A stretch of 64,000 bases of DNA from a plasmid. The first letter of the stretch is position 1, and each line of letters opens with the position of its first letter. The translations under genes and the position numbers were made by a program. This document shows, one piece after another, positions 3,110 through 38,452 of this stretch. The stretch lies in the NCBI RefSeq assembly GCF_054482595.1, contig NZ_JBTHVH010000001.1; one strand, 5' to 3'. The notes below the pieces were generated by a model. That model worked only from the letters and a program-made list of their open reading frames with translations, made no database searches and was not told where the DNA came from.

Positions 3110-3126
3110 ATTGCTCTAATAATTCC
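3110..3126 (+). promoter_or_regulatory. C1 repressor operator-like site
   Basis: ATTGCTCTAATAATTCC vs P1 C1 operator consensus ATTGCTCTAATAAATTT. Confidence 0.6.
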
Positions 3127-3137
3127 ATATTTTTAAA

Positions 3138-3166
3138 ACGTGATGTACACTCATCACGTTTTTTAT
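3138..3166 (+). terminator. Rho-independent terminator-like hairpin
   Basis: stem acgtgatg / catcacgt with 7-nt loop followed by T-run. Confidence 0.5.
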
Positions 3167-3175
3167 TAGAGCAAT
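3159..3175 (-). promoter_or_regulatory. C1 operator-like site (inverted)
   Basis: ttttttattagagcaat, reverse complement resembles operator consensus; forms inverted pair with 3110..3126. Confidence 0.45.
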
Positions 3176-3189
3176 CTACAAGGTGCACT

Positions 3190-3408
3190 ATGTGGCCATT
3201 CCGACGGAAATATCACTACTGGCTGATCGCCTTTGTTACGCCGACCGGCGGTATCAGGCATGTCATCACCAGGTATCGCAACAAGAGACTCACCTTAGCC
3301 AGAATTTTACAGGCTGCCATAGGTGAGGGACTGGATACAAATTGCGTAGTCCTTCCTCCTTCATACTTAGGAAAAATGACCGAAGCACAAGCTAATACGG
3401 AACTTTGA
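3190..3408 (+). CDS. hypothetical small protein (72 aa)
   Basis: ORF directly downstream of operator pair; weak SD. Confidence 0.4.
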   Translation: MWPFRRKYHYWLIAFVTPTGGIRHVITRYRNKRLTLARILQAAIGEGLDTNCVVLPPSYLGKMTEAQANTEL

Positions 3409-3409
3409 A

Positions 3410-34732: not shown

Positions 34733-36442
34733 TTGGCAGACAATAAAATCACGCTATCCTCGGTCAGGAAGGCGCTGGCGGGGGTTTTTAAAGACAACGG
34801 AGAACGGGACAACATCCTCCTGTCCGCGCTGGCTGTGCACGGCGGAAGTGGGTATTTGTTTTCTCGCGCAGGGGCACCGGTACAACTATCCGGCTTCTTA
34901 GGCGGCAAACCGGGCGATAGTGGCATGGCTGGCGATGGGCTGGTGGACGGAAGTCGCTTTATCTTTGATGAAGTTCAACTGCCGGAAGACCGCTTGCAAC
35001 GCTATCCGCTACTCGAAGAGATGGCGGTTTACAGCACGATCGCCACCGCGCTGAACATCCATATTACGCACGCGCTCTCTTTCGATAAGAAGACCGGACA
35101 AACCTTCTCTATCGTGCCGGTACACAACGGAAACGATAGTGACTATGACGCCGCACAGGGGTTGTGTGACGAGCTGATGAACGACATCGGGCGAACCATC
35201 AACAAAGAGGTCGCCGGGTGGGCATTTATCATGTCGGTATTTGGGGTGGCTTATGTCAGGCCATACGCCAAAGAAGGCATAGGGATCACGTCTTTTGAGT
35301 GCTCCTATTACACCCTTCCGAGCTTCATCAAAGAGTTCGAGGTCAGCGGCAACCTGGCGGGATTTAGCGGCGATTATCTGAAGGACGCGTCAGGGAAAAT
35401 GGTTTTCGCCGATCCGTGGGCCATTATCCCTATGAAAATCCCCTACTGGCGGCCTAAGTCAAACCTTATGCCTGTGCACACTGGCCATAAGGCTTTCAGC
35501 CTGCTGGATAATCCGGAAGAGCGCACGCCGATTGAAACCCAGAATTACGGGACCAGCTTGCTCGAATACGCCTACGAGCCGTACATGAATCTGCGTTCGG
35601 CGATCCGCTCGCTGAAAGCAACGCGTTTTAATGCGTCGAAAATTGACCGAATCATCGGCCTGGCGATGAATAGTCTGGATCCGGTTAAAGCAGCCGATTA
35701 TTCGCGCACCATTACTCAGACGCTTAAACGAGCAGCTGACCTGATGGAAAGACGCGCACGTGGCGCGAATAACATGCCTACGGTGACCAATACCCTGCTG
35801 CCTATTATGGGCGACGGCAAGGGACAGATGACTATTGATACTCAGACCATCCAGGCTGACATCAACGGCATTGAAGACATTCTCACCTATATGCGCCAGC
35901 TGGCGGCAGCACTTGGCCTCGATTACACCCTCCTGGGGTGGGCAGATCAAATGTCCGGCGGGCTTGGCGAAGGTGGATTCCTGCGCACGGCAATTCAGGC
36001 CGCCATGCGCGCCTCATGGATCCAGCAGGGCGTAGAAGAGTTCATTCAGCGGGCTATCGATATTCATCTTGCTTTCAAGTACGGCAAGGTATACCCGGAA
36101 GGTGATCGCCCGTACAAAATCGAATTCCACTCCGTTAATACCGCTCTGCAACAAGAGCACAACGATAACCGCGACTCGCAGGCGAACTACGCCACCATCG
36201 TTACGCAAATCCTCGATGCCGTCAGCAATAACAGCGTCCTCGCCAATTCCGATGCATTCAAACGTTACCTGTTCAGCGATGTGCTGGAGATTGACGAAAA
36301 AATCTCTGAAGCACTGGTGAACGAACTGAAAGCGAAAAGCGAGGACGACGATCACCTGATGGATTCCATCATCAAAACACCGCCACAGGAACTGGCGCAA
36401 ATCCTTGAATCGGTCTTTAAAGAGGGAAACGAGAATGACTGA
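34733..36442 (+). CDS. prt: portal protein-like
   Basis: 569 aa; TTG start with AAGGTG SD; synteny darB-prt-pro-lyz. Confidence 0.6.
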
Positions 36443-37454
36443 TGTTTTGAAAACGGTCACTGACCGCTTTTGTCTCTATAGTAATGCTAGAAAAGGTCGC
36501 CAGAACGGGCGACAGTATGTATTAAGCGCGGTAAAGGCCATGCTTGAAAGCAAGGAAACTCAGGAAGGTTTACGCCTTGGTGAGCTTTTCGGCTATTACG
36601 GTCACGGTCGCCGCCAGCTGACCGGCAAACTGGAAGTACCAGAAACCAGCGTGATCATGGTGGAAGGTCGCCCGGTCGTAATCGACAATGTTCCAGCGTG
36701 CCGAACAGTGGCTATATCTGTTGACGACAACGGCATCGTTACCCATACACAGGAAATTCTTAACACAGAGCCGGGTAAAATTGTTGCCGCGATGATCGAA
36801 AGCCGAGCTGGTGGCTGGAGCTGGGCCACTGGCGGGCGCGAGTCCGGGAAAATCGCTGTAACCACCAGCTTCCATGGTGTGGATTATGTGACAACGCCGA
36901 ACTATATCAGTCTGGATCATCCTGCCAGCGCCGGAATGTTTGAAAGCGCGGATTCTAAATCTTTACTGGCAGAGTCCCTGGCTGCGCATGGGTACTCCGA
37001 CGAGTCAGTGCAGGCCGTTATATCCCATTACGGCAAAATGGCTGAACTGGAAATGATGGTGGAGGCGACAGAGCGTACGGCAGAACTGGAAACCGCACTA
37101 CTCGAAAGCCAGGGCCGCCACCTCGAAGCAATGGCCAAGATCGCAGATGCTGAAGCGCGAATCGCTTTGCTGGAGGAAACAGCGGGTATCCGCGACGATG
37201 TGCTGGCAGCAATGCAAGACGAACTGGATAACCTCCCGATCTTCGTCTCCGCCGCCCAAAAAGACGCATTCCGCCTCAAAGAACCTAGTGATGCAAAAAT
37301 CGTTGCCACACTTTTCGAATCTCTGATCAAAGTTGGCGCACGTAACTTGCCTGTCACCAAGAAAATTAAGGAGGTTCCGCAAGCGTCTAACGTCCAGGCA
37401 CCGCGTGAGACAAGCATCATCTCGTTTAATAATTCAATCAATCCGTTTAAATAA
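36435..37454 (+). CDS. pro: head maturation protease-like
   Basis: ATG with GAGGGA SD inside ORF-track ORF 36405..37454; followed by terminator hairpin. Confidence 0.5.
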
Positions 37455-37498
37455 CCACCAAAAATAACCCCGGCGAGTGCCGGGGTTCTCGTTAACTA

Positions 37499-37753
37499 TT
37501 ATCGACTTCGCCTGCGTGCCATATATTTGCGCACCGCGCGGCGTGGACAATCTGAAGCGGTTTCTTTCTGCTGCATCAATCTCGCGGCCATGCTCAAAAA
37601 TGTCAGGCACAGCCGAAGCCCGGCATACAATAGCGGTTCCAGTGGCCACGTTTCATTAAGCACATATACCGCCATGAAAATCGAGTCGAAAACTATCGCT
37701 GCCAGCGATAACTTCATTGTCGAAAGTCTGCGGAGCTGCCGGAGTTTATTCAT
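37499..37753 (-). CDS. hypothetical membrane protein downstream of lyz
   Basis: 84-aa ORF with start overlapping lyz stop. Confidence 0.3.
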   Translation of the reverse strand: MNKLRQLRRLSTMKLSLAAIVFDSIFMAVYVLNETWPLEPLLYAGLRLCLTFLSMAARLMQQKETASDCPRRAVRKYMARRRSR

Positions 37754-38303
37754 TGACCAGTCCCGTCAGGCAAAGCTGGCGTTCTTTTTCACGGCGAATC
37801 TTTAAACCTCGCAGGGGCACGCCGTTACTGTTCACAAAATCAGGGAGATGGTTACACATATTCACCCATTCCCCTTTCTGCGCCCACTTGTGGATGGACG
37901 TTTCGACTCGCATGCCTCGCGCTTTGCTGTAGTAGGTCCGTAAGCTATTGCATCCCATATTGAATGCCGCGCTTGTCATTGCACTAAAGGCATTATCGGG
38001 CATGTCTTTGCCCCGGAAGTGCTGATTAATACAGCGTTCAGCGATCAGGATATTCTTTTCCCAATCAGCGGCGATTTGCTGGTCGGTTTTTCGCACACCC
38101 GGCGTTACCCCGTGTGTATTACCGATCCCGTCAGTCCATACCCCCGCCGGGCACATGTATGGATCACGTCGGCAACCTTCAGCGTTACCAATCAGCTCAA
38201 GCCCCGCCTGGTTGGTTCGCACATTGCCATTACCCATTACGATGGTAATCATCACCGCGATAGCGCAAATTGCACCGCCTCCTGCGGCTGTTTTTCCCTT
38301 CAT
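37746..38303 (-). CDS. lyz: SAR endolysin (T4-lysozyme family)
   Basis: 185 aa; N-terminal Gly/Ala-rich SAR segment AAGGGAICAIAVMITIVMG. Confidence 0.9.
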   Translation of the reverse strand: MKGKTAAGGGAICAIAVMITIVMGNGNVRTNQAGLELIGNAEGCRRDPYMCPAGVWTDGIGNTHGVTPGVRKTDQQIAADWEKNILIAERCINQHFRGKDMPDNAFSAMTSAAFNMGCNSLRTYYSKARGMRVETSIHKWAQKGEWVNMCNHLPDFVNSNGVPLRGLKIRREKERQLCLTGLVNE

Positions 38304-38435
38304 AAAGACCTCATAAGCGAATTTTTACGCTCCAGGACAAACACCCATTCACAGCCAATACCGACTGACTCGATCCCTTTAGAAGGCACAGGATAATGCA
38401 AATCACTTGTTAGCTACGTTTCAAAGATATACATT

Positions 38436-38452
38436 ATTGCTCTAATCATTTT
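38436..38452 (+). promoter_or_regulatory. C1 operator-like site upstream of ssb
   Basis: ATTGCTCTAATCATTTT. Confidence 0.55.

Follow-up and report, generated by a model that had tools for sequence, protein, structure and literature searches.

The 64,000-nt stretch of DNA analysed here in full (contig NZ_JBTHVH010000001.1; hereafter the window) is a P1-like phage-plasmid, namely a plasmid prophage of P1 type whose tripartite immunity circuit is intact, and this report concerns the 17-mers dispersed along it. It encodes the repressor C1, the C1 inactivator Coi and the C1 corepressor Lxc, and carries two antirepressor modules (Table 1). Over most shared blocks it is 93-99% identical to P1. Megablast of positions 18000-26000 retrieved P1, P7, SJ46, RCS47 and other Punavirus records at 94-98% identity. 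The closest complete record was the E. coli plasmid pYZMc17-1_100k (NZ_CP123256.1; below, pYZMc17-1), with 99.2% identity across 17500-27500, and at least 80% of this stretch was found in 50 plasmids. Since the window is a P1-type prophage whose immunity circuit is intact, annotation can be transferred to it from P1 and P7. A P1 genome holds 22 operators that share the same asymmetric 17-bp consensus as here; Lxc serves as the corepressor, and C1 is antagonised by Coi and Ant1/2 (PMC8546580). We find it very probable that the 17-mers of the window are the dispersed asymmetric operators of this primary repressor, C1.

In a first scan, the asymmetric consensus ATTGCTCTAATAAATTT was used with at most 3 mismatches allowed and 100 shuffles as the null. 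No perfect copy was present within the window. We observed 11 matches in the whole window versus 0.30 expected, and none of the 100 shuffles reached 11. The original prediction had announced at least 14 C1 operator-like 17-mers and listed 12 positions. These repeats are real, since 10 of the 12 positions match the consensus at this threshold and all 12 score at least 14.4 bits with the matrix described below. The other two, 23051 and 23527, keep the left 11-mer ATTGCTCTAAT and have 4 and 5 mismatches, respectively, all of them in the right half.

The published operator set was taken from the GenBank features of AF234172 (P1) and AF503408 (P7), and a weight matrix was built from the 20 monovalent C1 sites of the P1 record, with the strand of Omat corrected. 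Indeed, AF234172 puts Omat (2628-2645) on the - strand; the motif CATGCACTAATAAATAT reads on the + strand, as in the P7 Op(mat) annotation. The null was a first-order Markov model that kept dinucleotide content (200 simulations). Seventeen sites scored at least 14 bits, versus a null mean of 0.99 and a maximum of 4 in any simulation, and 13 scored at least 18 bits versus 0.065. Thus, the predicted enrichment was borne out with the published operators. Together with the weak Oc1b half the total is 18 sites, so that the 12 to 14 counted originally were a slight undercount. The earlier list lacked 393- (Oppp), 21115- (Oc1c), 25196+, 26286+ (Omat), 34586+ and the weak Oc1b at 20932+; Omat had escaped notice because it departs from the consensus at 4 positions. 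As training a matrix on orthologs of the sites is circular, a second matrix was made from only the 7 P1 operators located in P1 DNA without homology to the window. With this independent matrix, the 14 top scores in the window (ranks 1-14) all fell on sites of Table 1. Moreover, 16 of the 17 matrix sites lie outside long open reading frames (ORFs), that is, in 8.7% of a window that is 91% coding (P ~2e-16), or 15 of 17 once coi is counted as a gene. Apart from 18292 and 23051, the sites are located at or near sigma-70 promoters of early or immunity genes, and for the orthologs the P1 promoter annotation transfers.

Table 1. C1 sites, immunity genes, antirepressor modules, and blocks shared with or foreign to P1 in the window
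Feature	Position	Strand	17-mer	Score (bits)	Context
Matches to ATTGCTCTAATAAATTT with at most 3 mismatches	3110+, 3159-, 5251+, 14986+, 18292+, 20943-, 21407-, 21490+, 25212-, 38436+, 34586+				
Oppp (former Op83) ortholog	393..409	-	CATGCACTAATTAATTT	20.2	Between pmgM and pmgN; identical to P1 79435-79451
OpmgRa (Op86a) ortholog	3110..3126	+		22.3	Overlaps PpmgR -35; identical to P1; kept in JK004
OpmgRb (Op86b) ortholog	3159..3175	-		21.2	15 nt upstream of pmgR (3190-3408); identical to P1; kept in JK004
OpmgT (Op88) ortholog	5251..5267	+		26.2	Upstream of pmgT (5446-6174) and same-strand insert 6140-11335; identical to P1
Olpa (Op94) ortholog	14986..15002	+	ATTACTCTAATATATTG	18.8	Abuts Plpa -35; controls lpa (15073-15525), late-promoter activator
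Module 1 operator	18292..18308	+	TTTGCTCTAATAAATTG	21.7	4 nt after pacB stop; absent from P1; rank 6 with independent matrix
Oc1b ortholog, weak half of bivalent Oc1ab (Op99ab)	20932..20948	+	ACAAAAATAATAGATTT	4.6	P1 site itself 6.3 bits
Oc1a (Op99a) ortholog	20943..20959	-		23.2	Over Pc1 -35, c1 autoregulation; identical to P1; kept in JK004
Oc1c (Op99c) ortholog	21115..21131	-	ATTGCTCTAACGCTTTA	14.7	Inside coi; identical to P1
Oc1d (Op99d) ortholog	21407..21423	-		25.6	Over P1coi; identical to P1
Oc1e (Op99e) ortholog	21490..21506	+		24.7	Beside P4cre and lox; identical to P1
Operator-like site, cre-c8	23051..23067	+	ATTGCTCTAATTCTTTG	18.6	Between cre stop (23033) and c8 start (23084); unannotated in P1 and P7 records
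Oref (Op2a) remnant	23527..23543	+	ATTGCTCTAATTGAGCC	14.4	
Weaker inverted half at module 2	25196..25212	+	TTTGCTCCAATAAATCA	15.4	13.5 bits with independent matrix
Op51/Oc4-type operator of module 2	25212..25228	-	ATTGCTCTAATAGATTT	24.9	
Omat (Op2b) ortholog	26286..26302	+	CATGCACTAATAAATAT	20.4	Upstream of mat; identical to P1 2628-2644
Op(pro)-type site	34586..34602	+	ATTGCCCTAATGTATTT	16.9	70 nt inside annotated darB 5' end, 131 nt upstream of prt
Ossb (Op21) ortholog	38436..38452	+	ATTGCTCTAATCATTTT	21.3	20 nt upstream of ssb (38472-38960); kept in JK004
c1, repressor	19997..20848	-			281/283 identical to P1 C1.100
coi, C1 inactivator	20959..21168	-			69-aa ORF; block 96% identical to P1 93232-94800
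lxc (bof), C1 corepressor	27170..27418	-			82-aa ORF at P1 lxc position 9750-9998; block 98% identical to P1
Antirepressor module 1	18383..19964	+			isrK-like leader 18383-18460; C4 antisense RNA 18486-18573; Ant (ORF6N + KilAC domains) 18846-19964
Antirepressor module 2, inverted, immI-like	23624..25148	-			a1b1 targets 25096-25148; C4 RNA 24942-25027; icd 24673-24894; ant 23624-24676
Block shared with P1	1-6140				P1 79043-85182; 99% (blastn)
Block shared with P1	12613-18286				P1 87530-93204; 93% (blastn)
Block shared with P1	19998-23621				P1 93232-94800 + 1-2069; 96-97%; c1, coi, lox, cre, c8
Block shared with P1	26186-27099				mat (blastn vs P1)
Block shared with P1	27163-39958				P1 9743-22532; 98%; lxc to isaA
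Blocks shared with P1	41493-49111 and 52605-64000				P1 lysis, dar and tail genes
Non-P1 insert	6140-11335				PAPS-reductase-like gene, DUF551 gene, others
Non-P1 inserts	18286-19998 and 23622-25228				The two antirepressor modules
Non-P1 insert	25371-26171				MBL-fold gene
Non-P1 insert	39958-41493				HipA-like gene, N-terminal winged helix

Positional orthology links 13 sites to experimentally defined P1 operators that AF234172 annotates, and in nine of them the bases match P1 exactly; such orthology was not found for 18292, 23051, 25196, 25212 and 34586. The P1 counterparts of Olpa, Ossb and Oc1b read ATTGCTCTAATGTATTG (2 nt different), ATTGCTCTAATTAATTT (2 nt different) and ACGAAAATAATAGATTT (1 nt different), respectively. 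At Oref, alignment to P1 revealed a 13-bp deletion that collapses the P1 tandem ATTGCTnTAATTG repeat (ATTGCTCTAATTG/ATTGCTATAATTG), one unit being lost. Since ref has been replaced by the 3' end of the inverted ant gene of module 2, the site at 23527 is an orphan operator. As had been predicted, sites lie directly upstream of pmgR/pmgT with the accessory block, lpa, both icd-ant modules, immC, c8 next to cre, and ssb. The assignment to the C1 regulon of a P1-type immunity network likewise holds, given this orthology, the enrichment and a cognate C1, 281/283 identical to C1.100, encoded on the same element.

Conservation of the sites extends beyond that of their flanks. In the Cronobacter phage JK004, whose C1 is 77% identical, the flanks of the aligned operators are only 65-74% identical; operators were nevertheless found at the aligned positions of OpmgRa/b, OpmgT (ATTGCTCTAATAAATAT), Olpa (ATTGTTCTAATAGATTG), Oc1a, Op(pro) and Ossb. 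The same holds for the footprint between cre and c8 and for the leader of module 1, both described below. Matrix sites of at least 13 bits numbered 25 in pYZMc17-1 and 22 in JK004.

For the five sites unannotated in P1 (18292, 23051, 25196, 25212 and 34586), repression by C1 is predicted. The 17-mer at 34586 is identical in P1 at 17166 and unannotated there. At the aligned position JK004 carries ATTGCTCTAATAAATCT, which scores 26 bits and is intergenic, in a region 73% identical to the window. Since JK004 keeps the site, and in a form nearer the consensus, despite its diverged flanks, neither chance nor the coding sequence of darB is likely to account for it. Op(lydC), a predicted operator of P7, was not counted because it scored only 8 bits and was not conserved in the window. 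Between cre and c8, P1 and P7 carry ATTGCTATAATTATTTG (position 1485; 18.2 bits). The core ATTGCTCTAAT is the same in all non-P1 sequences compared, namely the window, four plasmids (571-bp regions 87-92% identical) and JK004, and the 10 nt upstream of it differ from the window in three of the four plasmids and in JK004. In JK004, a site of 24 bits follows cre at a distance of 44 nt. Matches to the cre-c8 region were found in 708 PLSDB records.

The remaining three sites belong to the antirepressor modules. The operator at 18292 is conserved in JL22, RCS47 and pYZMc17-1 and in the related leader of JK004. Module 1 matched Rfam RF01394 (60 bits) and RF01695 (75.9 bits) and Pfam ANT (4.5e-31) and ORF6N (2e-19). 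Its leader, at 18383-18460, matches Rfam isrK, an Hfq-binding small RNA of Salmonella, with 60 bits and ends in a terminator-like hairpin (18439-18455) and a T-run directly upstream of the C4 RNA. Module 2, which shares 80% identity with P1 48193-49721 (immI), matched Rfam C4 (71.7 bits), Rfam c4-a1b1 (55.5 bits) and Pfam ANT (3.4e-28). An extended -10 promoter-like site (25263-25234, - strand) ends 5 nt before the operator at 25212. The inverted partner of this operator at 25196, absent from the P1 Oc4 region and present in pYZMc17-1, forms with it a 33-bp tail-to-tail pair. Across four otherwise unrelated leaders, the 12-nt operator core is the only invariant block.

The C4 RNA of module 2 is close to that of P1, with few central changes, and that of module 1 is strongly diverged; this divergence, seen in one alignment, suggests different antisense specificities. 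Three icd-ant modules are present in pYZMc17-1 (517-1778, 44098-45368 and 49028-50364), corresponding to the canonical immI and the two that flank c1-cre; the window ends ~2 kb short of the expected canonical immI position. For P1-like plasmids, an earlier study had described an ant gene inserted between pacB and c1 as well as homologs of icd-ant within the variable region from mat to lxc; it makes no mention of operators (PMC6906374).

The mechanism proposed for these sites is established P1 biology, transferred by orthology. C1 made from c1 would bind each site, with Lxc tightening the binding, and bound C1 would occlude or roadblock the sigma-70 promoters that overlap or abut the operator. 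In the lysogen, this would silence the early pmg operons, ssb, mat, probably prt-pro and c8, and also lpa and, via Lpa, every late promoter. The coi/c1 autoregulatory unit and each c4-icd-ant antirepressor module would be silenced in the same way, and Coi and Ant would lift repression.

Several observations weigh against reading each of these sites as a working C1 operator. The resemblance to P1 is in large part inherited identity (93-99% in most shared blocks), so that orthology alone is no proof that every site works. The site at 23527 has lost its target gene ref and its right half, those at 25196 and Oc1b are weak, and that at 23051 lies ~60 nt downstream of the predicted Pc8 -10 and not over Pc8. 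Furthermore, no sigma-70 promoter was found at 18292 by a strict scan; by eye, only 7-of-12 hexamer candidates were seen there and on the + strand upstream of the MBL-fold gene, so the promoters assigned at these two places are putative. The sites could be inherited sequence only, several of them non-functional relics in this element, which would suit both the nine that are base-identical to P1 in 93-99% blocks and an Oref that is cut by a deletion and has no ref gene left to control. We consider this improbable. JK004 keeps the operators in flanks of only 65-74% identity, and in two cases they are stronger; the core of the cre-c8 spacer is invariant while the adjacent bases diverge; and new sites occur in non-P1 DNA at 18292 and 25196/25212.

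A different objection is that the enrichment reflects AT-rich promoter elements in intergenic DNA and not a repressor site. The right half of the motif is indeed AT-rich, TCTAAT and TAATAAAT resemble -10 boxes, and several P1 operators overlap -10 or -35 hexamers. However, conservation is highest in the G/C-containing TTGCTCTAAT, which is no promoter element, the dinucleotide-preserving Markov nulls gave ~1 site versus the 17 observed, and the same 12 nt are the sole block shared by the four unrelated leaders. This explanation therefore appears very unlikely indeed. With the 17-mers taken as C1 operators, the C1 regulon of P1-like phage-plasmids would exceed the P1 annotation, by an operator between cre and c8 (23051), by one at darB/prt (34586), much stronger in JK004, and by an own C1 operator brought in with each accessory c4-icd-ant module, one of them bivalent with a new 1-bp-overlap geometry. 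We lean towards this extension, if only slightly.

We then considered the cargo genes. The HipA-like kinase ORF (40095-41459), with a fused N-terminal ArsR/MarR-type winged helix, replaces P1 IS1-isaB, and the ORF list contained no separate HipB-like ORF of at least 50 aa beside it. It had been claimed that no C1 site lies in the MBL-fold or HipA-like genes, which is true at operator strength, the best matrix scores being 5.1 bits in the MBL ORF and 13.2 bits in the HipA insert. The latter, at 40805- inside HipA (14.35 bits with the independent matrix), was rejected as a chance match, as the mean null maximum was 14.7. It had also been argued that this absence fits later acquisitions outside C1 control, a conclusion that does not follow. 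The absence is uninformative because these targets amount to 2.3 kb, for which the mean density of the window predicts 0.6 sites (P(0) ~0.54), because sites are also absent from two stretches of P1 core genes, one of 8.3 kb (26303-34585) and one of 25.5 kb (38453-64000), 34 kb together, and because late genes are C1-controlled only indirectly. Most P1 genes are controlled by C1 in an indirect manner, through Lpa or by co-transcription.

Several points bear on whether the two genes were acquired later and are expressed independently of C1. Both lie at RD-1 and RD-2, known variable hot-spots of P1-like plasmids (PMC6906374), which makes later acquisition plausible, and other genes occupy the HipA position in the nearest relative. 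No operator-strength site lies inside either gene, and a promoter-like site (40076-40104) is found immediately upstream of the HipA-like ORF. On the other hand, besides the chance expectation just given, the ssb promoter, which is under C1 control, lies upstream of the HipA-like gene on the same strand, no + strand terminator having been detected in the interval, and 143 bp separate the start of the MBL gene from the operators at 25196/25212. The strict scan revealed no + strand sigma-70 promoter ahead of the MBL gene. Cargo also includes the 5.2-kb accessory insert, yet this lies downstream of OpmgT. Independent expression of the two genes is possible, at rather less than an even chance in our estimate; that they are outside C1 control is not supported by sequence alone.

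The collinear blocks of Table 1 were mapped by blastn of the window against P1 (AF234172). At the 5.2-kb insert (6140-11335), which also carries several unknown ORFs, P1 homology stops at 6140, near the 3' end of pmgT, and resumes at 11335. The matrix scan found no internal operator in this same-strand insert (top score 11.1 bits), which is therefore probably transcribed from the C1-controlled pmgT promoter. At 27099-27163 the window lacks the type III res-mod genes (P1 3437-9743), so that mat adjoins lxc directly; in pYZMc17-1 this junction holds a SIR2-family gene. The tail-fibre variable (C-segment) region at 49111-52605 is 70-76% identical to P1 or unrelated, and this divergence implies a different host-range module. 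Finally, an exact 1341-bp tandem duplicate (61319-62659 and 62660-64000, 0 mismatches) comprises part of pmgB, tub and part of pmgC; it stops exactly at the window end and is either a genuine duplication or an assembly or window artefact.

Taken as a whole, this is the textbook P1 immunity network, already known, in a common P1-like plasmid, and only a handful of extra operators and one unusual bivalent spacing are new here. The full operator map (17 matrix sites and Oc1b) is of modest value for engineering or tracking P1-like plasmids, which are vehicles of resistance genes. It also brings comparative support for two operators without an entry in the P1 record and points to extra antirepressor modules wired to C1; if this is true, a single repressor gates two or three independent anti-repression switches. 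For cargo genes the map calls for caution, since a missing internal operator says nothing about C1 control.

Compared with the C1 operators of P1 (AF234172), those of the window share the same asymmetric 17-bp consensus, the same repressor (99% identical) and 13 positional orthologs. They differ in the deletion within Oref and the lack of ref, in the 2-nt changes of Olpa and Ossb, and in the five sites without P1 annotation. The bivalent operators of P1, Op72ab (ban) and Op99ab (c1), consist of two tail-to-tail inverted 17-mers that overlap by 6 bp within 28 bp. Oc1ab of the window (20932-20959) has this structure, whereas the 25196/25212 pair overlaps by 1 bp and spans 33 bp in total. The site at 34586 has the identical 17-mer, at the same position of the darB-prt region, as the "hypothetical Op(pro)" of P7 (AF503408 20923-20939), which is only predicted in P7 and annotated there as a predicted control of proA and proB. 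Finally, both antirepressor modules follow the order of P1 immI (Op51/Oc4, c4-icd-ant), with an operator, a C4 antisense RNA and then ant, to which module 2 adds the a1/b1 targets and the icd ORF. Unlike immI, they are found outside the canonical location, one between pacB and c1 and the other between c8 and mat, and in module 1 the leader is isrK-like and Ant is of the ORF6N-KilAC type.

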